Below are positions 2,313-19,901 of a stretch of DNA of 32,000 nucleotides, piece by piece; within the stretch, counting starts at the first letter, position 1; the number at the start of each line of letters is the position of its first letter. Location: assembly GCF_000020025.1 (NCBI RefSeq), contig NC_010628.1, positions 8,100,001-8,132,000 of the forward strand. Direction: 5' to 3'. This stretch comes from Nostoc punctiforme PCC 73102 (GTDB taxonomy: Bacteria > Cyanobacteriota > Cyanobacteriia > Cyanobacteriales > Nostocaceae). The notes below the pieces were generated by a model. That model was not told where the DNA came from. It saw only the letters and a program-made list of their open reading frames with translations, and made no database searches. A program made the position numbers and the translations under genes.

Positions 2313-3350
2313 TTATCCTAACCACTCAGGATTTTTGGCTGTACTATCAAATTGGCTAGTGGTTTTAAACAGTTCATACTGACCTTTAAGAGCAGCTTGG
2401 CGAGTCCGATTCAGTAATGCTCTAACTTGTTCCTGGCTCATGGGTGTAAAAGTACTTACTGCCTCGAAAGCCTGGTTTAAGATGGGCATACTTTCAATGC
2501 CTGTAATCACCGTTGAAGTTGGCAGATTCATCGCGTAATGCAGACATTCGATAGGTTTGACCACATTGCTTTTGAGGATGTTTTGGTCGCCCATTGATTT
2601 CATCCCCAGTACAGCAATTCTATCTTGAACTAGTCTGGGTAAAACTTGCCTCTCAAAACTGCGGAAATGGGCATCCATAACATTTAACGGCATCTGCACT
2701 GTATCAAAACGGAACTTGTTTTGATTGGCAACTTCCAACATTCTCAGGTGTACTAAAGGATCTTTGTGCCCAGTAAAGCCTATGTAGCGAATCTTGCCAG
2801 CTTTTTGTGCTTCCACAACTGCTTCCATCGCACCGCCAGGGGCAAAAATCCGGTCTGGATCTTCCATGCGAATGACTTCATGATGTTGCAATAAATCAAT
2901 GTGGTCTGTTTGCAAACGTTTTAAAGATTCATCAATTTGTTTAGTAGCAGCCGCCTTTGTACGACCGTCAATTTTAGTCATCAGAAAAGCTTTTTGACGA
3001 TAACCATTTTGCAGAGCTTTACCCATGCGAATTTCGCTACCTCCGTTATGGTAATCCCAGCTATTGTCCATAAAATTAATCCCGCGATCGAGGGCAGTAC
3101 GGATCAGATTAATACCCTCTTGCTCATCTTTTGGTCTACCAATATGATGACCACCTAGACCAATTACAGATACTTGTTCTCCGGTGCGTCCTAGTTGCCT
3201 GTACAGCATTTCACCTTTTTTTATCTGGAGTGGAGTAGGCTGATTTTGCGCTAAAACCTGTTTAGTTAAACCTTGTAAAGCAAATACCCCAGCTCCACCT
3301 AAACCAGAAGCAGAAACTAGCTTCAGTAAATCTCGTCTGTTAATATCCAC
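2313..3350 (-). CDS. Aldo/keto reductase with twin-arginine (Tat) signal peptide
   Basis: 345 aa. The N-terminus MDINRRDLLKLVSASGLGGAGVFA has an RR motif followed by a hydrophobic stretch. The body is AKR-like (GINFMDNSWDY, GKIRYIGFTGH, and MQMPLN in place of the usual QxxYN). Confidence 0.88.
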   Translation of the reverse strand: MDINRRDLLKLVSASGLGGAGVFALQGLTKQVLAQNQPTPLQIKKGEMLYRQLGRTGEQVSVIGLGGHHIGRPKDEQEGINLIRTALDRGINFMDNSWDYHNGGSEIRMGKALQNGYRQKAFLMTKIDGRTKAAATKQIDESLKRLQTDHIDLLQHHEVIRMEDPDRIFAPGGAMEAVVEAQKAGKIRYIGFTGHKDPLVHLRMLEVANQNKFRFDTVQMPLNVMDAHFRSFERQVLPRLVQDRIAVLGMKSMGDQNILKSNVVKPIECLHYAMNLPTSTVITGIESMPILNQAFEAVSTFTPMSQEQVRALLNRTRQAALKGQYELFKTTSQFDSTAKNPEWLG

Positions 3351-3788
3351 AAATTAATCCTTTTGCCACAGTATGAGAACTTGCCCTGATAGCTAGCTTT
3401 GCACGAGAGCAAAATTCGCTGCTTCTAACTGTTGAAGGAGAAAAGCAGTGAGGTAGAGATAGATTTTTGATCGAGGGAGGGTAAGAGAAAAGAATATCCC
3501 ATCGTTGTGTAAGTAAAGGAAACATTGGAGACATAGGAAACAGAAAAATCTAATAGTCGTCTTCCTGATGTTGTTTCAGTAGTTAAAATGTCAACTCCAA
3601 CACAGTGCTTTAGTCCGAAAGTGTTATTGGGGAATTGTTTCTAAATCTTGGCAAGTATCATTTGTAGTGCTAAATATTCCTTGCAAAATTTCGAAACATT
3701 TAGCGTGTGGCTCAAAAATTGAGAAATTCCAGAAAATTTCTTTAGAAAAATCAAAATTTCAAACTTGATTGCGATAATAAGTTTAGGT

Positions 3789-3953
3789 AAAGGCAACAGG
3801 CAACAGGACAGGAGTTGGAAGGGGACTGTTACCCGTCCAACACAATCGTCCCATTGGGACGGGGCTTCTGACCCGATGGAAGGTTGAGGGAACAAGATCC
3901 GCATCTAACCAAAAATCTTCATTGTTGCCTATTGCCTGTTCCCTGTTCCTTTG
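3789..3953. repeat. Heptamer-repeat (CAACAGG-type, STRR-like) inverted arms flanking a ~108-nt core
   Basis: The left arm is aaaggcaacaggcaacaggacagg (3789-3812). The right arm is ttgttgcctattgcctgttccctgttcctttg (3923-3953) and is its imperfect reverse complement. The core contains further short stems, e.g. GTCCC-att-GGGAC. The element lies in the 676-bp divergent region between the AKR and the lipoxygenase. Confidence 0.6.
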
Positions 3954-4026
3954 ACCGAAAGTTAGTAACTCAAACCTGTTTATCCTCAAGTGTTAAATTT
4001 CCCAGTACTACACATGAGTAGAGCCA

Positions 4027-5919
4027 ATGACTGCTTTATCACCAGATCATTCAATCAGTTCATCAAGTACTCATACTTTAGATATAGCTAGGCAAGAGTA
4101 TCAATATAACTACAACCATATTCCATCTATTGCGATGGTGGATCGGCTTTCTATTACGGAAGAGTTCACCACTAACTGGTATTTTTTATTAGCCCAGCAG
4201 TTACGAGTTCTTTTTATCAATACCTTGATTGTCAACAGAGGCAATCAAGATTCTAAATCGATTCGTGATGATGTCGAAAGATTTATTTTAGAAGCCTTGC
4301 TCAAGGGAGCAGTACCAGCCCGAATCAGCATTCTGGCAAGAATCCTGCAAATTATCCCTCAGCTTTTGCTCAAAGAGATATCTAAGGATTTTAGAGAACT
4401 CGACGATCTTTTTCATTCTATTCTGAAAGAAAACGGACTTGCGATCCTCAGAGATGCTCTAAAGAGGATAATTACCCTTCTATATGAAGGACAGCCTACA
4501 GGACATGCAACCAGTCTCAAGGACTACGAAAATTTGTTTCCGGTGATTAGTCTACCAGCCATCGCTAAAACTTATCAGGAAGATGAAGTATTTGCCTACA
4601 TGAGAGTAGCTGGCTACAATCCCGTCACGATCAAGCGAGTAACTACTCTAAGCGATCGCTTCCCAGTCACAGACGAACATTACCAAGCGGTGATGGGAAC
4701 TGACGATTCATTAGCAGCAGCAGGGATTGAAGGCAGGCTCTACTTAGCTGACTATAAAATTTTAGATGGTGCAATCAACGGTACATTCCCACACGAGCAA
4801 AAATATCTCTATGCTCCCCTAGCACTATTTGCCTTACCCAAAGGTTCAGATCCCACCCGTCTATTGCGTCCGGTAGCCATTCAATGCGGTCAGACCCCAG
4901 GCCCAGATTATCCAATTGTTACTCCTAACTCCGGTAAATACGCTTGGCTTTTTGCCAAAACGATTGTCCAAATAGCAGATGCTAACATCCACGAAGCTGT
5001 TACTCACCTAGCAAGAACTCATCTTTTAGTTGGTGTTTTTGCGATCGCAACTGCTCGACAATTGCCACTCACACATCCCCTCAGAATCCTGCTGCGCCCG
5101 CATTTTGATAGCACCTTAGCAATTAACGATGCCGCCCAACGGATTCTCATTGCTCCAGGCGGTGGTGTCGATAGATTACTCTCATCATCAATCGATAACT
5201 CTCGCGTTTTAGCAGTGCTAGGGTTGCAAAGCTATAGTTTTAACAGCACCATCTTACCTAATCAATTCCAACAGCGCGGTGTAGACGATCCTAATCTATT
5301 GCCTATTTATCCTTACCGGGATGATGCCCTACTAATCTGGAATGCCATTCATCAATGGGTTTGGGACTACCTGAACCTTTACTACACCACGGATGAAGAC
5401 ATTCAAAAAGACAGAGCATTGCAAGCGTGGGCAGCCGAAATCCCAGCTTACGATGGTGGTCGTATCCCCGATTTTGGCGAAGATGGGGGCATCAAAACGC
5501 TAAATTACCTGATTGATGCCACTACATTAATTATTTTTACTGCCAGTGCCCAACATGCAGCCGTTAACTTTCCGCAAAAAGATTTGATGGGCTACGCCGC
5601 AGCCATACCATTGGCAGGTTATTTACCAGCCTCAACTCTCAAAAGAGAAGTTACCGAGCAAGACTACCTTAATCTGCTCCCCCCTTTAGATCAGGCACAA
5701 CGGCAATACAACCTACTCAGCTTATTAGGGTCTGTATACTACAACAAGCTGGGCGAGTATGAGCAAGGATACTTCACAGACGAGAAAGTAAAACCATTGT
5801 TACAGGCATTCCAAAGTCATCTTCAGCAGGTAGAAAATACCATCAAGCAGCGTAATTTGCACCGCCCACCCTATGAGTATCTCCTTCCTTCTAAAATTCC
5901 TCAGAGCATCAATATCTGA
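4027..5919 (+). CDS. Lipoxygenase (iron-dependent, bacterial type with helical N-terminal extension)
   Basis: 630 aa. It has WLFAKTIVQIADANIHEAVTHLARTHLL (the LOX His-x4-His iron-ligand helix), QHAAVNFPQ (His/Asn ligand motif), and a C-terminal ..PQSINI ending in Ile, the carboxylate iron ligand. No PLAT-like beta-barrel is evident at the N-terminus. Confidence 0.95.
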   Translation: MTALSPDHSISSSSTHTLDIARQEYQYNYNHIPSIAMVDRLSITEEFTTNWYFLLAQQLRVLFINTLIVNRGNQDSKSIRDDVERFILEALLKGAVPARISILARILQIIPQLLLKEISKDFRELDDLFHSILKENGLAILRDALKRIITLLYEGQPTGHATSLKDYENLFPVISLPAIAKTYQEDEVFAYMRVAGYNPVTIKRVTTLSDRFPVTDEHYQAVMGTDDSLAAAGIEGRLYLADYKILDGAINGTFPHEQKYLYAPLALFALPKGSDPTRLLRPVAIQCGQTPGPDYPIVTPNSGKYAWLFAKTIVQIADANIHEAVTHLARTHLLVGVFAIATARQLPLTHPLRILLRPHFDSTLAINDAAQRILIAPGGGVDRLLSSSIDNSRVLAVLGLQSYSFNSTILPNQFQQRGVDDPNLLPIYPYRDDALLIWNAIHQWVWDYLNLYYTTDEDIQKDRALQAWAAEIPAYDGGRIPDFGEDGGIKTLNYLIDATTLIIFTASAQHAAVNFPQKDLMGYAAAIPLAGYLPASTLKREVTEQDYLNLLPPLDQAQRQYNLLSLLGSVYYNKLGEYEQGYFTDEKVKPLLQAFQSHLQQVENTIKQRNLHRPPYEYLLPSKIPQSINI

Positions 5920-5937
5920 ATTAGGGACAAATGACCA

Positions 5938-7302
5938 ATGACAGTAAATATTATGACACTTAAAGATAAAGTTCTCAAAGGTCAAGATCGCCAGCTTTGG
6001 CTTGCACCGATACTAGCCAAAGTAGGTTATGACACTGCGATCGGCAAGTTTCTGCGTTTGATTTTCTATTATACAGATGCCTCAATCATACTCAAAGCGT
6101 GGCGGGACTTTCTCTACATTCGTAAGGACAATATTGGAGACAAGTATTTTGCAGTAGACCAAGCAATTATGCATTCCTCTCACTCCCAGGTGAGGGAACT
6201 AATGCAAACCCAACCACAACTGCGAGGAAATGATTTAGGCATCATCAGAATATTAGCTCCTAGCTACCTACTCGATAATCCTCTGAGCTTGGGAACGAAC
6301 GGTAACGAACACACAGGACTACGTACTGTAATCTTACAAGCCTTACCAGAACCGTCTCAAAAGATAGACTTTTTAGGAAATCTAGTTGAGCAAAGCTTGT
6401 TAGAAGCTGCTAAACAAGGCAAATTACACATCGGCAACGATTTGCCAAAGATCATACTGTCGATTTTGCATCAATTGGTTTTTCAGATATCTTTATCTGA
6501 GGAAGAAATTACAGCATCCGATAGTTACATTAAAGGTTTGGCTCTCGCATCCTTGCCTAATTTTATTAATAAGTATCTGCTGGCAATATTAACAGCACCC
6601 AAAATTCGGCATCGTCAATATTTAACCAATCGATATAAACAATCAGCTAAATGGGCATCTTACTTTGAAACAGGCGCTCAGTATCAGTTGAATGAACACC
6701 AAATTGCTAATACCCTTTTCGATATGATTCATATCGCTGGTACTGCCGGCACGAGTGCGCTTTTAGGATCAGTTATTGGTGTTCTCTGCTTGGATAATGA
6801 TCTCAGAAATGATGTAGTGTCAGAAGTGAATGCAGTCTGGAATGGTAAGAAAACTTTAGATCCAGACGCTCTAGAACAGTTAACAATTCTCAATCAAGTG
6901 ATTTTAGAAACGGCTCGTCTCTATCCACCTGTGCGATTTGTTAGCCAACTCACCAATGAAGGGGGTGAAGTCGAGATTGGAGAACAAAAATGTCCATTCC
7001 AAAAAGGTACTCGTTTGCTTGGCTCTATTTTTACAGCTAATCGAGATGCCAACAGATACCAAAATCCAAATGATTTTGACCTAACACGGAATTTTTCAGA
7101 TATTTTATCTTGGAACGGTGAAGGGCATGAGCGAGCCTGTCCTGGTAAATCCTTATCAATTGGCTTTATTAAAATTTTCTGTTTACATCTGTTCCAGAAC
7201 TATCAATGGGACTCAATTACAGAAGTTAAGTGGGATTTTGAAAAAGTGACTGCCGTTACTCCTAATAATTTAGTGCTACAAGGTTTTGCTCAACGACTGT
7301 AA
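5938..7302 (+). CDS. Cytochrome P450-like hemoprotein, atypical (candidate fatty-acid hydroperoxide-transforming enzyme)
   Basis: 454 aa, starting 18 nt after the LOX stop. It has the K-helix ETARLYPPV (ExxR), a PERF-like DLTRNF, and a Cys-loop WNGEGHERACPGKSLSIG with the proximal Cys. The I-helix region IAGTAGTS lacks the usual acidic residue. There is no N-terminal membrane anchor. Confidence 0.75.
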   Translation: MTVNIMTLKDKVLKGQDRQLWLAPILAKVGYDTAIGKFLRLIFYYTDASIILKAWRDFLYIRKDNIGDKYFAVDQAIMHSSHSQVRELMQTQPQLRGNDLGIIRILAPSYLLDNPLSLGTNGNEHTGLRTVILQALPEPSQKIDFLGNLVEQSLLEAAKQGKLHIGNDLPKIILSILHQLVFQISLSEEEITASDSYIKGLALASLPNFINKYLLAILTAPKIRHRQYLTNRYKQSAKWASYFETGAQYQLNEHQIANTLFDMIHIAGTAGTSALLGSVIGVLCLDNDLRNDVVSEVNAVWNGKKTLDPDALEQLTILNQVILETARLYPPVRFVSQLTNEGGEVEIGEQKCPFQKGTRLLGSIFTANRDANRYQNPNDFDLTRNFSDILSWNGEGHERACPGKSLSIGFIKIFCLHLFQNYQWDSITEVKWDFEKVTAVTPNNLVLQGFAQRL

Positions 7303-7339
7303 GTAATAAAATTAAGAGCCGGAAGTTTTGAATTAGAGG

Positions 7340-7972
7340 ATGTTTGTAAGTGCTTTTTGGGTGTATATTAATTACGAATTAAAAATTAGTATGACCGAAT
7401 TAATTGAAAGAAAGCAACTCGATAATATTGCAACCTGGATGATTCCAATTAAAGAAACAAACTTACCATCTATCCTTAAGGGTGTATTTTTTATGGATGG
7501 GAATCCTCTGCCAGATACTTGCATTACTATGTACAATTTGGAATGGAATATGCAGAGTAGAACTTTGGTTTTACCAACCTTTGCTCCATTACAGTGGACT
7601 TTTCATAACTCGATTGCGGGTTGGATATTACTACGTTTAATTCAATGGTTTAAAGTAACTTACAAAATTCAGTTTGAAGATGAAACGTTGCAACAAGCTC
7701 AGATCATCCCTGTTTTGCTGGGAATACCAATTTCAAAATTGATTGTGAGTTCTACAATGTCCCAAGACAACAATTCTCTTAATGGAGATATTTGGCACAG
7801 AAATAACGTTTGGTTCGGCGGACTTTCTAGGGCTGGTGAGTATACTCTCCGTAAGGTTGTTGATAAAGATGGTTGTTATACTCCTGCTTTTAACGATATG
7901 CTTACCAGGGTGAAAAATGAGTGTTTAGTGATTGCACCTACTCAAATTGATATGGCTTGTCCTTTTGAGTAG
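7340..7972 (+). CDS. Hypothetical protein co-oriented with LOX/P450 (no family recognised)
   Basis: 210-aa ORF. The ATG at 7340 directly abuts a GAGGA, which is too close to act as an SD. An alternative ATG at 7391 (MTELIERKQ..) gives 193 aa. The strand matches the P450, with a 37-88 nt gap. There are no TM segments and no motif I can name. Confidence 0.5.
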   Translation: MFVSAFWVYINYELKISMTELIERKQLDNIATWMIPIKETNLPSILKGVFFMDGNPLPDTCITMYNLEWNMQSRTLVLPTFAPLQWTFHNSIAGWILLRLIQWFKVTYKIQFEDETLQQAQIIPVLLGIPISKLIVSSTMSQDNNSLNGDIWHRNNVWFGGLSRAGEYTLRKVVDKDGCYTPAFNDMLTRVKNECLVIAPTQIDMACPFE

Positions 7973-8251
7973 CACGTTTCCCGTTTCCCGTCAATGCTCT
8001 CTTAGAAAAGTAGTCAACACAAAAAATGACTACTCATGTAATAAAAAGTATAAGCTTCTAATTCGTTATTTTGATTCAGCAATCCCAAATTAGTTAAAGG
8101 CTTACTCCAAGAGATTAAACAAGAAGACAGGATTTGCTTATAGATAATCATATAAATATTTCGTCAATTCATTATCTAAACAGGCCGATCCAACACCAAC
8201 AAAAAGCGATTACGATATACTGAGCCTAAATTGTAAAAGGAAATATAACTG

Positions 8252-10536: not shown

Positions 10537-12021
10537 ATGACTGACAAAAATCGTTCTCAATGGGACTTAGGCAGGTTTCTCGAAACCCTGACTTACTTTG
10601 AGGTAATTCCTTTCCTTAACTGGGTACAGCAGTTAATCCAAGGCCATCCAAAGGATAATCAAGATAGACCCAATGGAGGGAGAAACGTGGGTGTAATACT
10701 TGTAGCAGGTGCAACAGGTGGTGTAGGTAAACGAGTGGTGCAGCGATCGCTCCAACAGGGTTATAAAGTCCGCGCCCTAGTTCGAGACATTGACAAAGCG
10801 CGGTCAATTTTAGGTAATGATATAGACTTAGTAGTTGCGGATATCACACAACCAGAAACTTTAACTCCTTTAGTTATGGCTGATATCCAAGCTGTAGTTT
10901 GCTGCACAGCAGTGCGCGTGCAACCAGTTGAGGGAGACACAGCCGATAGAGCCAAATATTACCAAGGTGTTAAATTTTACCAACCAGAAATTGTGGGCGA
11001 CACTCCCGAAAATGTAGAATATCAAGGTGTCAAAAACTTAGTCCAAGCGGCCGCAAAATATCTACCCCAAGCAAACGAAAAAATAATATTTGATTTCACC
11101 AAGCCATCAGCAGAATTAAAAGATAACTGGGGGGCGTTGGATGATGTCGTCATGGGTGGCGTGAGTGCCAGTAATATCCAATTAGTAGAAAATACAGCTT
11201 TATTTGCAGGTAATGTATCCACCGCTAACTCTGGCGGATTTGCTTCTGTCAGAACTAAGAATTTTGATCCCCCCTTTAACTTATCTGGTTATGAAGGTGT
11301 GAAATTGCGCGTCAAAGGTGATGGACAACGTTATAAAATCTTCCTAAGAACAGATACAAAATGGGATGGGGTTGGCTATAGCTATTCTTTTGACACAGTA
11401 GCTAATACTTGGATAGATGTTCGCATTCCCTTTGCAGATTTAATTCCCGTCTTTCGGGCAAAAGTTGTCAAAGATGCGCCGCCAATTGAGCAGACTAGAA
11501 TTTGTTCATTCCAATTGATGTTGAGCAAATTTGAATATGATGGGGCTTTGAATCCCAAATTTTCCCCTGGTGGTTTTACTTTGCAATTGGAATCAATTAA
11601 AGCTTACGGCGGTACAACTTTACCACAATTTATCCTAGTCAGTTCAGCAGGTGTAACTCGTCCCGGCCGCCCTGGCATTAATTTAGATGAAGAACCGCCA
11701 GCAGTGAAATTAAATGACCAATTGGGAGGAATTCTAACTTGGAAATTGAAGGGAGAAGATAGTTTAAGAGAAAGCGGAGTTCCTTATACGATTATTAGAC
11801 CTTGTGCTTTAACTGAGGAAGTAGGGGGTAAGGAATTAATATTAGAGCAAGGCGATAATATTAAGGGCAAAATCAGCCGTGAGGATGTGGCAGAACTTTG
11901 CGTGCAAGCGCTAAAAATAGCGAAAGCTTGTAATGTCACCTTTGAGATAAAACAGGCAGATAATACTGTTAACTCTATCGATTGGCAGAAGCTATTTTCT
12001 AATTTAGTAAAGGATAAATAA
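10537..12021 (+). CDS. NAD(P)-binding (NmrA/atypical-SDR-like) protein with an inserted CIA30 (complex I intermediate-associated 30) domain
   Basis: 494 aa. It has the Rossmann motif ILVAGATGGVGKRVV. The central region WGALDDVVMGGVSAS..GGFASVRT..GVKLRVKGDGQRYKIFLRT is typical of CIA30. The NAD(P)-binding fold then resumes (FILVSSAGVTRP..YTIIRPCAL). Confidence 0.72.
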   Translation: MTDKNRSQWDLGRFLETLTYFEVIPFLNWVQQLIQGHPKDNQDRPNGGRNVGVILVAGATGGVGKRVVQRSLQQGYKVRALVRDIDKARSILGNDIDLVVADITQPETLTPLVMADIQAVVCCTAVRVQPVEGDTADRAKYYQGVKFYQPEIVGDTPENVEYQGVKNLVQAAAKYLPQANEKIIFDFTKPSAELKDNWGALDDVVMGGVSASNIQLVENTALFAGNVSTANSGGFASVRTKNFDPPFNLSGYEGVKLRVKGDGQRYKIFLRTDTKWDGVGYSYSFDTVANTWIDVRIPFADLIPVFRAKVVKDAPPIEQTRICSFQLMLSKFEYDGALNPKFSPGGFTLQLESIKAYGGTTLPQFILVSSAGVTRPGRPGINLDEEPPAVKLNDQLGGILTWKLKGEDSLRESGVPYTIIRPCALTEEVGGKELILEQGDNIKGKISREDVAELCVQALKIAKACNVTFEIKQADNTVNSIDWQKLFSNLVKDK

Positions 12022-12634: not shown

Positions 12635-12860
12635 TTGACATACTCCCCCGAATTGAATTCGGGGGATTCTAGCTTCAAACAGCAATTGCAGTCATAGACT
12701 GTCTAACATCACCTAAGCCAACAGTCGATGCCCCAACTGCACAAATATTACGACTAGCGTTTTCATCCCTTCCATTAACTGACTGGCAAGACGGACAACG
12801 CCACTCACGAGTATTTAAATCAAGTTTTTCTAAAACATATCCACAATGAGAACAAGTCTT
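12635..12860 (-). ncRNA. Predicted TnpB omega-RNA (reRNA) scaffold overlapping the tnpB 3' end and the IS right end
   Basis: This is by analogy with characterised TnpB systems, where the guide RNA scaffold derives from the tnpB 3' end plus the RE. The 10-bp-stem hairpin at 12645-12665 lies within it. The 5' limit (about 12860) is a guess and no fold was computed. Confidence 0.4.
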
Positions 12861-13850
12861 GCTACTGGGATACCATTGGTCGATAAAAACAACCAATTTG
12901 TTCTTCTTCTTGGCAACCCATTCTAAGATTTGCAGAAATTCCCCAAAGGCTAAATCAGAAACCTTACGACCCAAAAGACGATGCATTCCTTTAAGGTTGA
13001 GTGTTTCAAAACACAGCACATCAAACTTACTGGTTAATTCATGCGCTAATTTCCAAAACCAATCACGCCTTCGGTTAGAAATATCTTCATGCTTGCGTAC
13101 TAAGTTCTTTCTTGCTCGTTCCCGATTGGATGAGCCTTTCACCTTCCTGGAGTGATGACGATTTGCCTTTTTGATAGCATTAAGGGACTGTTTAAAAAAC
13201 TGGGGTGATTCAATTTTGCGAAAAACGCGGTCTTGGGGTTCCCCCAAGAGGAGCGATTTTTCAAGACAAGTACCATCAGAGCAGGTGAGAAACGTCTTAA
13301 GCCCAAAGTCAAAACCCGCTATCTTACTAGTCGTGAATTTAGCTTCTGGTTTACTATCCTCATCAACAAATACAACTATAAACAATTCACCCAATGGTGT
13401 GCGCTTAATGGTTAAGGTTTTGATTGTCCCCTCTATTTGTCTAGATTTCCAAAATTGATAAACTCGATTGCCAATCTTAACTCGATTACCAGCCAGAAAC
13501 TTATAGCCTGCTTGTTTTAAGGTGAACGATTTATATTTTTTGACCTTTTTAAATGCTGGTGGTCTTACTCCTTTATTATAATGTTTAAAAAATAACTGAT
13601 AGGCTTTCTCAATGCGTTGACAGATATCTTGTACTGCTTGAGAACCTACTGATTGCCAAAATTGGTTTTTCTTCCGCAGTTTAGCGATGTGTGACTGAAG
13701 TTTTGCACAATTTAAATGCTTGCCCCACATTCGGTAATAGCGCTTGTGGAGAGCGATTGCGTGATTATATATCACCCCAGACGCATTAATCATGCGTTTG
13801 AGATATCTATTTCTTTTGTGCTGGTATAACTTAAACTTCAGAGTTTTCAT
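12675..13850 (-). CDS. tnpB: TnpB (IS605 OrfB family RNA-guided endonuclease)
   Basis: The maximal ORF runs to 13892 (405 aa), but the likely start is MKTLKFKLY (ATG at 13850-13848), giving 391 aa. RuvC-like residues are present: GFDFGLK (D), CFETLNLKGM (E) and NGRDENASRNI (D). A zinc ribbon is present: CSHCGYV..CPSCQSV. Confidence 0.92.
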   Translation of the reverse strand: MKTLKFKLYQHKRNRYLKRMINASGVIYNHAIALHKRYYRMWGKHLNCAKLQSHIAKLRKKNQFWQSVGSQAVQDICQRIEKAYQLFFKHYNKGVRPPAFKKVKKYKSFTLKQAGYKFLAGNRVKIGNRVYQFWKSRQIEGTIKTLTIKRTPLGELFIVVFVDEDSKPEAKFTTSKIAGFDFGLKTFLTCSDGTCLEKSLLLGEPQDRVFRKIESPQFFKQSLNAIKKANRHHSRKVKGSSNRERARKNLVRKHEDISNRRRDWFWKLAHELTSKFDVLCFETLNLKGMHRLLGRKVSDLAFGEFLQILEWVAKKKNKLVVFIDQWYPSSKTCSHCGYVLEKLDLNTREWRCPSCQSVNGRDENASRNICAVGASTVGLGDVRQSMTAIAV

Positions 13851-13896
13851 GTGGTTATGATACCATCTATTATGTAGATAATCAACACTCATCTAC

Positions 13897-14353: not shown

Positions 14354-15172
14354 TCACGACCCGTAAGCTGGCTTCAATTTCCGTAGGAAGTTAAGCATGG
14401 CTGAAATCACAGTATCTGGCGACTCAATTAAGAAGCCATGACCACCACCTTCGAGAACTACAAGTTCAGCGTTAGGAATGCCTTGAGCAAGTTGCTGGGA
14501 AAACTTTAGGGGAGTGAGAATGTCTTGTTTGCCAACTAGAACTAGGGTAGGACAATGAATTTTTTGAAGGCGATCTGTTGTGTCAAAGTCAAGCATAGCT
14601 TGGCTGTGATGATGGAGTGAATGAGTCGCTGGCGGGAAAGGATATCTGATTGCAAATTCGATCAGACCTTCGATCGTGCCAGGAATCGCGTAGAAGCTAT
14701 CTGTAAATATCCAGGGTAATACGACTTTTTCATAAAGTTTCAGGTCTACATTAGCGCAGAGTTCGCCCCAAGTCTCAATGATACTGTTGAATAATCCATC
14801 ACCCTTTGCCAGTGACGAAAGTAGCATTAGACTTTGCACTTTTTCAGGATGTGCTAATACTAGTTCTTGAGCTATCTGACCTCCCATTGAATGACCCACT
14901 AGATGCACCTTATCGATCGCAAGATGATTGAGCAATGCTGCAACGTCATTAGCCATCTGCTTTAGACTATAGGGGGTTTCGGGAGCAGAACTTCGCCCCA
15001 TACCTCGGTTATCTAAGCGAATAACTTGATACTGCGAAATCAGCGATGGCATAATCAACGACCAATAGGCATGATCGCAAAGAAAGCCAGCTATTAATAG
15101 CAAAGGCTCACCCGTTCCCTTAATGTCGTAGAACAAATCAATCCCGTTAACCTGAAGCTTTGGCATAGTCAA
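14354..15172 (-). CDS. Alpha/beta hydrolase (AB_hydrolase_1 type)
   Basis: 272 aa. It has VHLVGHSMGGQIA (GxSxG), HCPTLVLVGKQDILTP and GGGHGFLIESP (His region). By the inferred IS boundary, the last two codons and the stop fall inside the IS end. Confidence 0.9.
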   Translation of the reverse strand: MTMPKLQVNGIDLFYDIKGTGEPLLLIAGFLCDHAYWSLIMPSLISQYQVIRLDNRGMGRSSAPETPYSLKQMANDVAALLNHLAIDKVHLVGHSMGGQIAQELVLAHPEKVQSLMLLSSLAKGDGLFNSIIETWGELCANVDLKLYEKVVLPWIFTDSFYAIPGTIEGLIEFAIRYPFPPATHSLHHHSQAMLDFDTTDRLQKIHCPTLVLVGKQDILTPLKFSQQLAQGIPNAELVVLEGGGHGFLIESPDTVISAMLNFLRKLKPAYGS

Positions 15173-15220
15173 TAATTCTGCTAAACCCGATCTGAAGCAG
15201 GGATAGATAACGCTACACTC

Positions 15221-15613
15221 CTACGTCTTAAATCTCTCGTCCACCGGAATTTGATAGCCGTTGGCGAGGCGATTGGTCATGTTGGCAGTAGCTGCGATCG
15301 CCATGAGTTCCCCGAACATGGTATCATTCATACCCTTGGCCCGCGCTCCTGCTGTGTGCGAGGCAATACAATACTCACAGCCATTTGTCGCACTCACGGC
15401 GATATAAATTAGTTCTCGCATCAGTGGATCAATTTCACCAGGGCTAGTCATCACTTCTTTCACCGCTTGCCAAGTTCGTTGCAAGGTAGGGGGATGATTA
15501 GCTATGGCTTTCCAAAAGTTATTGATATAGTCATTCTGGCGGGTGACGCGGATATCGTCATATACTGCCCGGATTTCATCGCTGGCTTCTTCGTATTCAA
15601 TCAGCTTAGTCAT
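15221..15613 (-). CDS. Carboxymuconolactone decarboxylase family (AhpD-like) protein
   Basis: 130 aa. It has RELIYIAVSATNGCEYCIASHT with a CxxC motif, typical of the CMD/AhpD fold. Confidence 0.85.
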   Translation of the reverse strand: MTKLIEYEEASDEIRAVYDDIRVTRQNDYINNFWKAIANHPPTLQRTWQAVKEVMTSPGEIDPLMRELIYIAVSATNGCEYCIASHTAGARAKGMNDTMFGELMAIAATANMTNRLANGYQIPVDERFKT

Positions 15614-15638
15614 GTTTCTATGTTTTTACTTCCAAACA

Positions 15639-16202
15639 TTAGCGGTGATGAAATTCGACCTCTCTCTCCAGAATCTTAATATCATAGTTGCCGAAGAAAT
15701 CGTGGCCCAGTAAGCCGATGCTGGCTTTGGGTGCGATCGCTACCTGAAGATTATTGGCTGTAACTCCACCTGCTGCAATAGATTTTACCTTACTGGTTGG
15801 AAATTCTACTTCGCTACCATCGGCAATTTGGGCTTGCATTGTACCTGTAGTCTGGAGTTTAAGTGTATTCGCCATACTTTGAGTAATAATGGTTCCGCTA
15901 GCACCAGTATCTACAATCATTTCAAAGGTTTTTTTGTCATTGAAGGTAACGTCAATCACAGGAGTTCCACCAAAGCGGCGTTTAATTGAGACTCGAAAAA
16001 CTTTATTGTCTGAAGGTGCGACTATAATATTGCTACAAATCCTTCCTAACCCAACGGTTTTACCAGAGGAAGTTACCATGTAACATGCTCCTGGATCGTC
16101 TGCTGTTGCTCGATGAGAGAATGCTAAAAATATCAGCGTCGGCATTAGTGCGATCGCAGCTAGATTAACGGTTATAATCCAAGGCTTCCAAGCATTCTTC
16201 AT
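15639..16202 (-). CDS. Retropepsin-like (clan AA) aspartic protease with N-terminal membrane anchor/signal
   Basis: 187 aa. There is a hydrophobic N-terminus (WIITVNLAAIALMPTLIFLAF). The active-site signature is MIVDTGASGTIIT (DTG), and the C-terminal part reads GLLGHDFFGNYD. Confidence 0.78.
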   Translation of the reverse strand: MKNAWKPWIITVNLAAIALMPTLIFLAFSHRATADDPGACYMVTSSGKTVGLGRICSNIIVAPSDNKVFRVSIKRRFGGTPVIDVTFNDKKTFEMIVDTGASGTIITQSMANTLKLQTTGTMQAQIADGSEVEFPTSKVKSIAAGGVTANNLQVAIAPKASIGLLGHDFFGNYDIKILEREVEFHHR

Positions 16203-16421
16203 ATTATATTGCTCTCCAATTTGTCTGATATTTGTTGATAACTAAATGACTCATAAATACTGCAAAAATTTGTGCCAAAAGCCCAGTTGTTAATCCCAAA
16301 ACACCATGTTTATATAGAGCGATATCGATTATATGCAATATATCTTAACCAGGATAAACTCATCTAATTTGGTATAATATAATAAGCTTGACAAATCAAA
16401 AAAGATAAGAATTAACTTTCA

Positions 16422-17489
16422 TTAGTTTTTTCTGATTCCTTGTGTTAAGACTGATTGAGATGCACTTGCTCTGGACGATTTAGCGTTCGGGGTTGAAAAA
16501 TCACCTAAGAAAAGCTGACGCATAATTGAAAAATTGCAGGTAATTTTGTAGATAATATATGAAATAATTAATGCACCTAATACCCTAATTCCTTGAGCTG
16601 CGAATATTGGGTAATTTTTCATAGTTATTTGTATCGGTTGATGTAAATACATAACGATCATAGAAGCATTACCAAGTTCGCGCAGGGCATTTCCTATGTA
16701 AGATTTATTATAAAGTAGTAGCGCAAATTGCTGTGTAATAATAATGCCAGATAAAGCTATAACAACATTAAAGATTAAGACTCCATAGCTTGTACCTTTC
16801 ATATTAAAAGCAAAATGCAGCAGAGACACTGTATCTAGTAAAATTGCAGTCAAAAATATTATTGTTCCTAATATAAGGATTTTAGTATTAATTAAAAATG
16901 ATTTAGCTGCCATGTGCCCTAACCAGTAAAATGGTAGTGCCATTGCAACTACATTGATATTCCAAGGAAAGGCAACATTTTTTAGATAATAATTAATCAT
17001 TGCTAAACAATAGGAGCCAAGCATAATTTTTATCATCAACCAATTATTAGAGCCAAACTTTATATAGAGCAGGTTATATAACTGCTGCGTAATAAATAAA
17101 CAAGTTACAAACCAAAATACACTAAACCAAAGCGCCAGATTTGCTCCACCATACAATTGTTTCCAAATGACCGGAAATATAGATATTATAAGTTTGTCTA
17201 TCGATAATATTTTTTTGTGCTGCCAACTATCTATTATTAATGGTAGATACTGAAGGAGAGTAAATAAAAAAAGAAATGAAAAATATGGTACTAGAAGATG
17301 AAGAAGTTTTTTCTTAAAGAAAGCAGAATAGTCAGTTTTTTTGCTATAAAGATATCCACTGATAAAGAAAAAAAGCGGCATGTGAAACCAGAAAATATAT
17401 TTCGATACTGGGTTGACTATGTGTCCTACAACAACCGTAATTATGGCAAGACCTTTCCAACAATCAATCCATTCAATTCTTTGCGACAT
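16422..17489 (-). CDS. Acyltransferase family 3 integral membrane protein (O-acyltransferase)
   Basis: 355 aa. The N-terminal RIEWIDCWKGLAIITVVVGHI is typical of acyltransferase_3. About ten hydrophobic segments follow. Confidence 0.78.
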   Translation of the reverse strand: MSQRIEWIDCWKGLAIITVVVGHIVNPVSKYIFWFHMPLFFFISGYLYSKKTDYSAFFKKKLLHLLVPYFSFLFLFTLLQYLPLIIDSWQHKKILSIDKLIISIFPVIWKQLYGGANLALWFSVFWFVTCLFITQQLYNLLYIKFGSNNWLMIKIMLGSYCLAMINYYLKNVAFPWNINVVAMALPFYWLGHMAAKSFLINTKILILGTIIFLTAILLDTVSLLHFAFNMKGTSYGVLIFNVVIALSGIIITQQFALLLYNKSYIGNALRELGNASMIVMYLHQPIQITMKNYPIFAAQGIRVLGALIISYIIYKITCNFSIMRQLFLGDFSTPNAKSSRASASQSVLTQGIRKN

Positions 17490-17868
17490 TAATCATACCT
17501 ATAGACTCTGTTGAATACTGTCGATGTCTGATATTTCTTTTGGCTTTCTCTGAACACTAGGATTTCTCAGAGCTTAAGCAGATTTAGTTTCCAAGCCTTG
17601 TGGCATCAACCTGACTCCTGACAGTTTTTTAGCAACAGCATTGAAGTCTTTTCATTTATTTTGCTCACTTGTCAAGTGCGTTATTTATCCTGTCTTTTAT
17701 GCTGATCTTATTTGATTTGCCAAGCTCACATAATACCGAATTAGATGAGCTTACACTGTATATCTTAACTAGAATTACTGAGTGATAAATTAAAGATTAA
17801 GTAAAGACATGATAAAAACACTTAGAGTAGATTAGGTGTAACGTACTAATTAAAATAAATTTGTTAGC

Positions 17869-18642
17869 TTACTCCAGTTTTGCTGCTGCATTTACAGCAA
17901 TTGCGATCGCATTTTTCACAGCAATATCCCTCTGTTCTAAGATGATATTTTCACTCACAGTACGCCCAGCAACTACACCGCAAACAGCAGCAGCAGCAAA
18001 ATTATACACACCTGCCATTTTGAATAGTGTGCCGGATTCCATCTCATAATTCAAGATATTTAAACGCCGATATTCTTCTGTGATGCCATGCAGCGATCGC
18101 ATTAAATTTGGATTTGCTGAATCTGTGCGTTCTTGTCCTTCGTAAAAAGTATCAACTGATGCCGTAATTCCGATGTAATGTTCAACCTTTAATTCTCGCG
18201 CGGCTTTAACTAAAGCGACTGTCAGAAACGGATCGGCTGCGGCTGGATATTCCACAGGTGCAATGTCATTTGCTGCACCTTGGCGACATAATGCTGCACT
18301 GCTAATAACAACGCTACCGACTGGTATATAAGGTTGAATTGCTCCGCAAGTTCCAATGCGAATGATTTGCCGAATTCCTACTTGTATCAACTCGTTGACA
18401 ACAATACTTAATGAAGGCGCACCCATACCACTAGTTGCAGATAAGATGCTGCGACCATTTGGTAAATATCCCACATAGCTATTGAGTCCGCGATTTTCCG
18501 ACAATAAGCGAACATCTTGGAAATAAGTTTGGGCAATTAGATGCGAGCGCTCTGGCTCACCAGATAATAGGGCAATCCTGGGAGGCGATGAACCTAAATC
18601 ATCTTGTCCAAAGCCAATGTGATAAAAGCGTTTATTTGCCAT
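17869..18642 (-). CDS. Nucleoside phosphorylase (PNP_UDP_1 family, uridine/purine nucleoside phosphorylase-like)
   Basis: 257 aa. It has HIGFGQDDLG..ALLSGEPERS, SGMGAPSLSIVVNEL, IIRIGTCGA and NYEMESGTLF, which are the family-1 NP motifs. Confidence 0.88.
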   Translation of the reverse strand: MANKRFYHIGFGQDDLGSSPPRIALLSGEPERSHLIAQTYFQDVRLLSENRGLNSYVGYLPNGRSILSATSGMGAPSLSIVVNELIQVGIRQIIRIGTCGAIQPYIPVGSVVISSAALCRQGAANDIAPVEYPAAADPFLTVALVKAARELKVEHYIGITASVDTFYEGQERTDSANPNLMRSLHGITEEYRRLNILNYEMESGTLFKMAGVYNFAAAAVCGVVAGRTVSENIILEQRDIAVKNAIAIAVNAAAKLE

Positions 18643-18773
18643 TCAATGCTACTCGCACGCGTATTGCAGATCGGAGCGTTTCTTATTGCTGGCTCCTACA
18701 ACTAAGGAACCAAGAATTGCTCTCAATATGGTTGGGCGATCGCTAAACTATTAGGACTTATGCAACTAACTTG

Positions 18774-19901
18774 TCACGCATGAACCAACAAGTATTGACC
18801 GTTACCAAGAATTTCACCATCACAACCGTCAAAATACACAATGCACAAGAGCAAATAAAGTCTCCACATCCGGCAGAACTTGCCATAGTTCATACCATAA
18901 TTTAAATCTTTGACTTTAGCTTGATTCTGGTCAAAATTCATCAACCAATTTATCAGAGTCTTTGAGTAGTTAGCACCATTTAAATACCATTGATTAATAG
19001 TTTTTAGGTCTGTATTAACCTTTGGAATGACATCATAATTCCACACCCGCATGTTTGGAAAAACATATTTGTCTATAAAAGGATGGGTTATATTATAAGG
19101 TAATCTGGTTGTGATTATGTGAATTAACACCTTGCCATCATCTTTTAGGAGAGAAGCCAGTTTTTGAAATGATTTCGTTAAATTACCTACATGTTCAAAC
19201 AGGCCAATCGCCATAATTTTATCAAACTTATTCTCAAAATCAATATCATTAAAGTCCTTTTCATATAGAGTGAATCTATCTGAACTGAGGTAACTAGTAG
19301 GGTCTCGCATTTTTTTACGCATATATTCACATTGCCCGTGGCTCAAATTAAGAGCTGTTACTTTCACATGCGGAAACCGGGAAAGGATGTAATTTGATGC
19401 AGAACCCCAACCGCATCCCAAATCTAAAATTTCGTCTCCATCTTCGATGCCTGCTTTTGCAATCAAATCATCGAGCATGTGCATTTGAGCTTGCTTAAGG
19501 TTAGATGCTTCTTTTTCCCATAAACCCATTGTGTATTTTGGATATAAAAGTTCTGTCTCTTTTAACATCAGACTGAACATTTCTTCGGGTAGGTTGTATT
19601 GAACCTTCATTAGTTCGTGCGATCCTTCTGCAAGGCGATCGCTTTCTTGCAACAGCCATTCATAGGGAACTAAAAGAGAGGGAAAATATTTGTAGCTGAT
19701 TTGCATCGAGAGATTTAAAAGGGATTTAAGCAGAGGAGCGGGGATTTTTAGCCCATTGATATAAGCCTCTGCTCCTGCCATTACGATTGCATTGAATGCA
19801 GCGATCGCTGTGCGGTTAGCTTGGTAAGCAATTCGGTTTTTGTTATTCACATCTACTAAAAGATTATGTCTTTGGATCTTGTCTGTAATGCTGGAAGTCA
19901 T
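18774..19901 (-). CDS. SAM-dependent methyltransferase, cyclopropane-fatty-acyl-phospholipid synthase (CMAS) family
   Basis: 375 aa. It has HYNLP-like QYNLPEEMF, the SAM motif I ILDLGCGWGS, and FDKIMAIGLFEHVG. Overall length is CMAS-like. Confidence 0.85.
   Translation of the reverse strand: MTSSITDKIQRHNLLVDVNNKNRIAYQANRTAIAAFNAIVMAGAEAYINGLKIPAPLLKSLLNLSMQISYKYFPSLLVPYEWLLQESDRLAEGSHELMKVQYNLPEEMFSLMLKETELLYPKYTMGLWEKEASNLKQAQMHMLDDLIAKAGIEDGDEILDLGCGWGSASNYILSRFPHVKVTALNLSHGQCEYMRKKMRDPTSYLSSDRFTLYEKDFNDIDFENKFDKIMAIGLFEHVGNLTKSFQKLASLLKDDGKVLIHIITTRLPYNITHPFIDKYVFPNMRVWNYDVIPKVNTDLKTINQWYLNGANYSKTLINWLMNFDQNQAKVKDLNYGMNYGKFCRMWRLYLLLCIVYFDGCDGEILGNGQYLLVHA

Follow-up and report, generated by a model that had tools for sequence, protein, structure and literature searches.

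A window of 32,000 nucleotides (nt) from Nostoc punctiforme PCC 73102 (NC_010628.1, 8,100,001-8,132,000) harbors, at positions 4,027-7,972, three consecutive genes on the plus strand, encoding an iron lipoxygenase (LOX), a divergent cytochrome P450 and a small protein, here called ORF3. We found that these genes form a cassette conserved across cyanobacterial orders and that the third protein has relatives in chytrids, where it occurs as a domain fused to a LOX and to a different cysteine-ligated heme enzyme. Quite likely, the three genes serve a single oxylipin pathway. The more specific scheme, which we favor with less assurance but still hold to be probable, is that the hydroperoxide formed by the LOX would be transformed by the heme-thiolate P450, assisted by ORF3 as a ligand-binding barrel. 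The map of open reading frames (ORFs) returned frames of 630, 454 and 210 amino acids (aa), in the positions and on the strand given to them by the first-pass annotation, which had been made from the letters alone (Table 1).

The first gene could be identified with a known enzyme. Pfam assigned it to the lipoxygenase family (PF00305, E = 3.3e-59; score 201.5 bits, cut-off 23.6), and all iron ligands that had been recognized by eye are indeed present, namely, H327 and H332 (HxxxxHxxxxH), H510 and N514 (HxxxN), and the C-terminal I630. Among solved structures, it is closest to the bacterial-type 15-LOX entries 8x8f and 4g32 (E ~1e-116, the best 3e-116). N. punctiforme PCC 73102 is reported to have a LOX of 630 aa, NpLOX1, and a second one of 547 aa, NpLOX2 (Lang & Feussner 2007, as cited), and since the length of the window LOX is that of the former, it is almost certainly NpLOX1. 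According to the same work, as cited, the cloned NpLOX1 is a linoleate 13-LOX that works best at pH 8 and prefers alpha-linolenic acid, and 13-LOX products of free fatty acids predominate in wounded N. punctiforme. The LOXs of Rivularia and Calothrix, two other cassette-bearing genera, are listed as 13S/omega-6 LOXs.

The adjacency of the three genes extends far beyond this genome. A survey restricted to one genome per species gave 73 loci bearing the P450, with identities from 97% down to 62%, in Nostoc, Calothrix, Stigonema, Halotia, Atlanticothrix, Iningainema, Brunnivagina, Leptolyngbyaceae, Leptothoe and Phormidesmis. A LOX gene stands immediately 5' of the P450 gene and on the same strand at 69 of these loci, and the full LOX>P450>ORF3 triad lies on one strand at 67; two loci show LOX-P450 before the contig ends, and at two others the upstream side is cut or too short. 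When all ORFs of the most divergent loci, 19 in number, were clustered, no conserved neighbors emerged other than LOX, P450 and ORF3. As this order recurs in 67/73 loci while the other neighbors differ, the arrangement is far beyond chance. The intergenic gaps range elsewhere from 5 to 453 nt between LOX and P450 and from 1 to 699 nt between P450 and ORF3, thus indicating that gene order, not translational coupling, is conserved. Taken together, these comparisons support a three-gene cassette that is a conserved, co-oriented and vertically conserved unit across several cyanobacterial orders, an outcome that the first-pass annotation, which had the single sequence before it, could raise as a question.

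Such variable distances, together with a co-transcription that is only predicted, would suit the view that the adjacency is a historical accident and that the genes are functionally unlinked. This is very improbable, given that the triad is kept while every other neighbor changes and that the association recurs, as described below, with a LOX that is not an ortholog and is oppositely oriented, and as fungal gene fusions; on comparative grounds, chance adjacency appears to be effectively refuted. Two further records concern the loci themselves. A contig binned as 'uncultured Acetobacteraceae' (L039, CAZZZY010000458.1) carries an 88%-identical Nostoc-type P450 with ORF3 and was probably mis-binned, its likely source being a cyanobiont in a lichen metagenome. 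At L068:10001-11363, from one Nostoc metagenome-assembled genome, the tblastn match to the P450 is partial (from 10518), which may be due to a frameshift, to decay into a pseudogene or to faulty assembly.

The P450 combines a complete fold with an unusual active site. Its match to PF00067 (E = 1.1e-18) covers the C-terminal half alone (residues 249-433), and its AlphaFold2 model, with a predicted local distance difference test (pLDDT) score of 84.7, shows a complete P450 fold. The sequence displays an ExxR motif (E324-R327), a PERF-like stretch at 376-384 (P377, F380 and R384) and the cysteine ligand C401 in HERACPG. In an alignment of 38 diverse family members (mean column identity, 71%), the ExxR motif, the PERF-like residues and C401 are invariant, and the Cys loop follows the consensus WNGxGHERxCPG. 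In the I-helix, AGTAGTS (267-273) replaces the canonical (A/G)Gx(D/E)T(T/S); in an alignment to ferruginol synthase, Ala270 stands where the acid would be and Gly271 where the Thr would be, so that the acid-alcohol pair by which canonical O2-activating monooxygenases are recognized is missing. AGTAGTS is invariant in 38/38 members, and the pair is also missing in two outliers of 50% and 28% identity. Loss of the acid-alcohol pair is typical of P450s that use peroxides and do not activate O2 (CYP74, CYP8A1, CYP5A1 and CYP152), and a few true monooxygenases likewise do without it. The atypical, soluble P450 suspected from the first reading is thereby confirmed as such, and the sequence data support an enzyme that deviates in the manner expected of a peroxide-using rather than an O2-activating P450.

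We then considered whether this P450 belongs to one of the known peroxide-using families. The first-pass annotation had drawn its logic from CYP74, the plant enzymes that convert LOX products, but placement by profile E-values and by fold revealed no specific affinity. In a Foldseek comparison with the PDB (probability, 1.0), the model was equidistant from CYP3A4, P450 BM3, CYP46A1 and CYP74A, with a template modeling (TM) score of ~0.7 and 14 to 18% identity; CYP74A structures ranked 14, 21 and 30, with TM scores equal to those of CYP3A4 and BM3. The best solved sequence relative was found at E = 4e-08 with the single sequence and at 5e-10 with the profile, the latter being an ordinary P450, while the profile reached CYP74A2 (3dam) at E = 4.4e-06, at rank ~20, among CYP3A4, BM3 and CYP152. 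Because the CYP74A2 score (4e-06) is no better than that of CYP3A4 or CYP152, we conclude that the P450 is not a member of the CYP74 clan. The clan reportedly has an extended Cys-ligand loop, with an insertion of ~9 residues, and a non-canonical heme signature. The Cys loop of the window P450, WNGEGHERACPG, is an ordinary R-x-C-x-G, and in an indirect test of loop length, the profile span 265-418 corresponded to 279-448 of CYP74A2, which is 16 residues longer, compared to differences of 2 to 4 with ordinary P450s. E-values, fold ranks and the ordinary loop all speak against CYP74. Membership in CYP152 was rejected as well: these peroxygenases bind the substrate carboxylate with an I-helix Arg-Pro, which is lacking in MIHIAGTAGTSALLGS, and CYP152A1 scored at E ~6e-06 to 4e-05, no better than unrelated P450s.

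The P450 might instead be a conventional ferredoxin-dependent monooxygenase, acting on a fatty acid or on a reduced LOX product such as 13-hydroxyoctadecatrienoic acid (13-HOTE) or 13-hydroxyoctadecadienoic acid (13-HODE) and giving di-/trihydroxy or epoxy fatty acids, with ORF3 as a lipid carrier. The full fold and the presence of all structural motifs would agree with this, as would the fact that the nearest solved sequence relatives are ordinary monooxygenases, some monooxygenases being able to work without the conserved Thr. Clustering of the ORFs from the 19 divergent loci revealed no ferredoxin or reductase gene conserved near the cassette; ferredoxins are abundant in cyanobacteria, so the missing adjacent redox partner proves little, yet a neighborhood without a conserved one still counts against a monooxygenase. 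Also against it, the O2-activation pair is invariably Ala-Gly, both throughout the family and in the two outliers (28% and 50% identity), and chytrids put a peroxide-dependent heme-thiolate peroxidase, for which no reductase is needed, in the place of the P450. We therefore regard a monooxygenase as unlikely.

The third gene, taken for an orphan at first reading, proved to have many relatives. We found 147 homologs at E<=1e-3 in Nostocales and Leptolyngbyaceae, and an exhaustive hidden Markov model search with the family profile against 1.84 billion representatives returned 295 proteins at E<=1e-3, mostly stand-alone proteins of 200 to 320 aa, with several long ones among them. A third large search, made with a profile of diverse ORF3 domains, returned the cyanobacterial clade alone and added nothing. 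None of 40 members matched any Pfam family, even at E<=10, NCBIfam gave nothing specific, and the profile detected no solved relative among PDB sequences, the sole hit (E = 1.2) being a chance match. The AlphaFold2 model (pLDDT, 90.5) is beta-rich with three helices, and its top Foldseek hits in the PDB are nitrophorins, designed barrels and a leukotriene-binding lipocalin, all of them weak (E = 8e-3 to 0.2, TM score 0.3 to 0.4). Allene oxide cyclase (AOC), the small barrel of the plant pathway, was rejected as an identity for ORF3, there being no AOC Pfam match and no AOC among the top 50 fold hits.

Across 119 distant domains sharing <40% identity, the superfamily core consists of P26, G31, N38, W69, G77, Y91, F95, W135, R137, Y151 and G161, to which the cyanobacterial clade adds an invariant MDGNPxPDxC motif and QWTF(H). 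Strongly conserved polar residues are N38, R137 and Y151, and in cyanobacteria also D36, D42, C44 and H72. A constellation of Arg, Tyr, Asn and Trp inside a barrel is what would be expected for binding of a fatty-acid carboxylate.

More distant loci show that the same partners can be arranged differently. In GCA_000155555.1, which we take to be Coleofasciculus chthonoplastes PCC 7420, an ORF3 relative (P0271, 48% identity) lies 64 nt 3' of a P450 gene whose product shares 50% identity with the window P450 and does not differ from it in the I-helix, FDMIHVAGTAGTS. Here the LOX, of 656 aa, is encoded divergently on the opposite (minus) strand and shares 35% identity with the window LOX over 82 residues only, which indicates a different LOX lineage. 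This rearranged cassette (L083:4113-8552, DS989853.1) was also found in two other assemblies (L084 and L085). At L081, an ORF3 relative (39% identity) and a P450 fragment are encoded convergently. The fragment shares 28% identity with the window P450, to which it is by far a closer relative than any PDB P450 is, and its I-helix, IAGCLGSASLAGSV, is again without the acid-alcohol pair. A short contig (L086) shows the C terminus of a LOX followed 50 nt on by an ORF3 relative, and the contigs of two other distant relatives (L080 and L087) are short or cut, their context being uninformative. A faint TTR-52 match was seen at the N terminus of the 656-aa LOX.

Pfam scans of long ORF3 relatives revealed fusions of the ORF3 domain in chytrids. 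Proteins from Chytriomyces (P0306, 1204 aa) and Physocladia (P0324, 1176 aa) consist of Peroxidase_2, the ORF3 domain and LOX, and one from Entophlyctis (P0391, 1748 aa) consists of the ORF3 domain, Peroxidase_2, LOX and RING; P0308, P0382 and P0365 have Peroxidase_2 and the ORF3 domain without LOX, and P0363 has the ORF3 domain with LOX. The fusions come from Chytriomyces sp. MP71, Physocladia obscura, Entophlyctis spp. and Podochytrium sp., and the three-part proteins (KAI8619731.1, KAJ3117091.1 and KAJ3387201.1), with ORF3-domain E-values of 1e-10 to 1e-17 in a library of 1.8 billion proteins, are annotated merely as lipoxygenase or hypothetical protein. The Chytriomyces gene spans ~4 kb (L079:5001-9028), and because its domain exons are only ~35 to 45 nt apart, the product looks like a true fusion and not like merged neighbors. 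A scan of 30 ORF3 relatives detected no other recurrent domain. Peroxidase_2 is the chloroperoxidase/unspecific-peroxygenase family, with a Cys-ligated heme and with peroxides used instead of O2 and a reductant. Since this peroxide-using heme-thiolate enzyme is fused with the ORF3 domain and LOX, the combination of a LOX, a heme-thiolate enzyme and an ORF3 barrel appears to have been assembled twice, as a cyanobacterial operon and as a chytrid polypeptide. ORF3 keeps company with the heme enzyme more strictly than with the LOX, and it appears to found a new beta-barrel domain family whose recurrent partners, in two kingdoms, are solely LOXs and Cys-ligated heme enzymes.

The position of the ORF3 domain N-terminal of LOX in two chytrid fusions raised the possibility that it substitutes for the PLAT domain of LOXs. 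This is less likely, as ORF3 follows the heme enzyme where LOX is absent, the Entophlyctis protein has its peroxidase domain between the ORF3 domain and LOX, and no LOX PLAT domains are found among the fold matches of ORF3. Outside these contexts, a stand-alone copy of the ORF3 domain was found in a foraminiferan, and three tandem ORF3-like genes (256, 230 and 230 aa) lie at L078:6065-10551 on a 1.5-Mb gene-sparse, eukaryote-like metagenome contig, where no LOX or heme enzyme was found near them. In an unidentified bacterium (L082:361-2399), an ORF3 relative (40% identity) lies directly 3' of an AttH/lipocalin-like gene (PF07143), coding for a lipid-binding barrel, with no LOX or P450 beside it.

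The existence of Peroxidase_2-ORF3 fusions without LOX (P0308, P0382 and P0365) and of P450-ORF3 pairs without an adjacent LOX bears on another explanation, namely, that the cassette is protective. The heme-thiolate enzyme would then be a lipid-hydroperoxide peroxidase or peroxygenase that disposes of LOX- or stress-derived hydroperoxides without a dedicated end product, and ORF3 would be a lipocalin-like binder that sequesters or delivers them, in line with its best fold matches being ligand-binding lipocalins and not enzymes. However, the pairing of LOX and P450 at 69/73 loci and the chytrid fusion fit channeling toward a product better than detoxification, and the conserved polar residues of ORF3 (N38, R137 and Y151, with the cyanobacterial D36, D42, C44 and H72) exceed the needs of a passive binder. 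A purely protective role is thus improbable in our judgment.

In the scheme that we favor, free alpha-linolenic or linoleic acid is converted to its 13-hydroperoxide by NpLOX1, the step described in the literature for the 630-aa LOX of this strain. The P450 would take the fatty-acid hydroperoxide as both substrate and oxidant in a class-III-type chemistry: the hydroperoxide would bind at the heme, its O-O bond would be cleaved and the substrate rearranged without external electrons or a redox partner, with an allene oxide, an epoxy alcohol, a hemiacetal or a divinyl ether as candidate outcomes. The least certain step is the third, in which ORF3, as a soluble calycin-like barrel, would hold the carboxylate end of the lipid with Arg137, Tyr151, Asn38 and Trp residues and would either present the hydroperoxide to the heme enzyme or capture and convert its labile product, in a manner comparable to plant AOC. 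A bolder and rather doubtful version is that the cassette is an independent counterpart of the plant branch formed by allene oxide synthase (AOS) and AOC, in which a non-CYP74 heme-thiolate enzyme would give an unstable epoxide (allene oxide or epoxyallylic) and ORF3 would cyclize or resolve it stereospecifically. If this were true, cyclopentenone-type or other signaling oxylipins would arise in organisms where such a route is thought to be missing, namely, cyanobacteria and chytrids.

Several points weigh against the favored scheme. We infer the chemistry of the P450 and of ORF3 in its entirety, and the missing acid-alcohol pair is suggestive, not diagnostic. Neither by sequence nor by fold is the P450 specifically close to CYP74 or to another P450 known to transform hydroperoxides, and no Asn matching the catalytic Asn of CYP74 or PGIS was identified in it. 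The fold matches of ORF3 are weak (E>=8e-3, TM score 0.37), with AOC outside the top 50, and the chytrid fusions exist as computationally predicted gene models. In two Calothrix genomes, the P450-ORF3 pair follows an isoleucyl-tRNA synthetase gene, and the nearest 10 kb contain no LOX. Moreover, with intergenic gaps of up to 453 and 699 nt in other genomes, the genes need not be strictly co-transcribed.

The proposed cassette resembles several known systems, each in part. The plant pathway, in which a LOX is followed by a CYP74 enzyme (AOS, hydroperoxide lyase, divinyl ether synthase or epoxyalcohol synthase) and by AOC, is alike in logic: a 13-LOX, a heme-thiolate P450 without the I-helix Thr and a small beta-barrel. 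The plant CYP74A structures 3dan, 3dam and 3dsi rank high in the fold comparison with the window P450 (TM score ~0.67 to 0.71), but the latter is no nearer to CYP74 than to CYP3A4, BM3 or CYP46A1 (4e-06 for CYP74A2 versus 5e-10 for the best ordinary P450), it has an ordinary R-x-C-x-G Cys loop and its span from I-helix to L-helix is ~16 residues shorter than that of CYP74A2. ORF3 matches neither the AOC Pfam family nor another, and the N. punctiforme genes are clustered as a bacterial cassette. In the coral AOS-LOX protein (PDB 3dy5), a LOX is likewise physically coupled to a dedicated hydroperoxide-transforming hemoprotein, and coral AOS-LOX chains are significant sequence relatives of the window LOX (E ~1e-73). 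Fusions of a catalase-related hemoprotein with LOX also occur in Anabaena PCC 7120 and Acaryochloris. In these fusions the heme is Tyr-ligated, whereas the heme partner in the cassette is a Cys-ligated P450, encoded by a separate gene and accompanied by an obligatory third protein.

The fungal dioxygenase (DOX)-CYP fusions, comprising linoleate diol synthases, 8R/9S-DOX-AOS and epoxy alcohol synthases, and likewise PGIS and TXAS (CYP8A1 and CYP5A1), offer self-sufficient P450s comparable to what we propose for the window P450. The passages of PMC13049297 that deal with them describe P450s that isomerize the fatty-acid hydroperoxide or endoperoxide of their partner dioxygenase. They differ from the cassette in that their dioxygenase is a heme-containing, COX-like enzyme and not a LOX, in their P450 families and in having no beta-barrel partner. 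N. punctiforme itself has a two-gene module of a 10S-DOX and a catalase-related 10S-hydroperoxide lyase, a hemoprotein which, in the account given there, consumes a specific hydroperoxide (PMC13049297); the organism is the same, but the dioxygenase and hemoprotein families are different and no ORF3-type protein is involved. Closest in composition are the chytrid proteins, in which the beta-barrel domain of ORF3 itself occurs with a LOX and a Cys-ligated heme enzyme. There, the heme enzyme is of the chloroperoxidase/unspecific-peroxygenase type and not a P450, all parts are in one polypeptide, and the proteins are eukaryotic and themselves uncharacterized.

The layout of the window locus is that of an operon. 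The genes lie on one strand, with gaps of 18 to 33 nt and 88 nt, no terminator-like site was found on the plus strand, and the order is kept in 67/73 loci; LOX, P450 and ORF3 are thus probably co-transcribed from a promoter 5' of LOX. The 18-nt gap remarked on at first reading between LOX and P450 holds for the first ATG and becomes 33 nt from the alternative start at Met6 (5953), which is used by RefSeq WP_041565798.1 and by most homologs, and this spacing is not conserved elsewhere. The distance from P450 to ORF3 had been put at 37 to 88 nt; the start shared with homologs and with RefSeq WP_041566561.1 (193 aa) is Met18, which favors 88 nt, and the opening of the frame at 7340 is not favored. 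Terminator scan and folding gave no convincing hairpin in the P450-ORF3 spacer, and between 3300 and 10600 no terminator-like site was found on the plus strand, in agreement with the earlier impression, in a scan that has little power, since it returned 5 sites, all on the minus strand, compared to 5.0 +/- 2.1 in shuffled sequences. In the region 5' of LOX, a plus-strand scan found no sigma-70-like site and Rfam gave no match; Rfam and tRNA scans of the whole window were empty. The 279-nt spacer after ORF3 (7973-8251) contains a modest 8-bp AT-rich hairpin, AGUAGUCA...UGACUACU, at ~8009-8034, which could mark the end of the cassette transcript ahead of the lineage-specific hydrolase gene.

Table 1. 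Genes and spacers of the cassette and its immediate neighbors (positions in the window)
Feature	Position	Strand	Details
Aldo/keto reductase, twin-arginine N terminus (NRRDLLK)	2313..3350	-	PF00248, E = 1.5e-30; divergent from LOX
Intergenic region, 676 nt	3351..4026		Between the divergent aldo/keto reductase gene and LOX; presumed site of the cassette promoter
Iron lipoxygenase (LOX), 630 aa	4027..5919	+	ACC84808.1 / WP_012412744.1, exact match; PF00305
LOX-P450 spacer, 18 nt	5920..5937	+	AGGGA 10-14 nt 5' of the ATG at 5938, read directly from the sequence
Divergent soluble cytochrome P450, Npun_F6549, 454 aa (449 aa from Met6)	5938..7302	+	ACC84809.1; PF00067
P450-ORF3 spacer, 88 nt	7303..7390	+	Sequence and terminator scan; fold of -13.7 kcal/mol over 111 nt (weak)
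ORF3, Npun_F6550, 193 aa (most likely start)	7391..7972 (210-aa ORF opens at 7340)	+	ACC84810.1; homologs, alignment and AlphaFold2 model
DUF900 alpha/beta hydrolase, 558 aa	8252..9928	+	PF05990, E = 6e-10; SHSMG nucleophile elbow; 2 predicted transmembrane helices

The genes that flank the cassette do not share its conservation. The first-pass annotation had suggested that the reductase and the lipase-like hydrolase could extend the pathway. The DUF900 hydrolase gene lies directly 3' of ORF3 in 15/73 loci, all of them from close Nostoc relatives, and is absent from the 19 divergent loci; the aldo/keto reductase gene stands 5' of the cassette in a subset of Nostoc loci only and in 0/19 divergent loci. 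As both are confined to subsets of close Nostoc relatives, we excluded them as core parts of the pathway. The hydrolase is possibly a membrane-anchored, lineage-specific accessory lipase that would supply free fatty acid. Further 3', a 494-aa protein on the plus strand (10537-12021) has a CIA30 domain, like that of complex I assembly factors, inserted in an NAD(P)-binding NmrA/SDR-like fold, and is found beside the cassette in the closest Nostoc relatives only. An IS605-family OrfB/TnpB-like gene (12675-13892, minus strand; OrfB_IS605 and Cas12f1-like TNB domains) lies ~4.7 kb 3' of the cassette, and a similar element lies 5' of a LOX-less Calothrix locus (L050:5292-6500). The minus strand also carries a run of lipid-related genes (14354-19901), whose products are an alpha/beta hydrolase, a membrane acyltransferase_3 and a cyclopropane-fatty-acid-synthase-like methyltransferase (CMAS). 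In divergent loci, this run does not accompany the cassette.

The first-pass annotation had spoken of an undescribed pathway. This does not hold for the LOX, which is already known; what appears to be new is the partnership of a P450 and a barrel, together with the ORF3 domain family. In the searchable full-text literature, which leaves most subscription journals outside, we found no description of a LOX-P450-ORF3 cassette, of Npun_F6548-6550, of a bacterial LOX-P450 operon or of Peroxidase_2-LOX fusions, and neither a survey of cyanobacterial P450s nor a May 2026 review of bacterial LOXs describes the cassette, Npun_F6549 or Npun_F6550. The chytrid Peroxidase_2-ORF3-LOX proteins likewise seem to be undescribed.

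Jasmonates, green-leaf volatiles and the eicosanoid-like mediators of animals and corals are made by routes that are entered through a module of a LOX and a hemoprotein. Bacterial LOXs have mostly been studied as isolated biocatalysts, their physiological roles being obscure. The present analysis names natural genetic partners for an already cloned and assayed LOX. Their partnership is an ancient one and occurs widely among filamentous cyanobacteria, many symbionts of lichens and plants among them. The fate of bacterial LOX products thereby becomes directly testable with three small soluble proteins, and the cassette may give new hydroperoxide-transforming catalysts and oxylipins for symbiosis, wounding or development.

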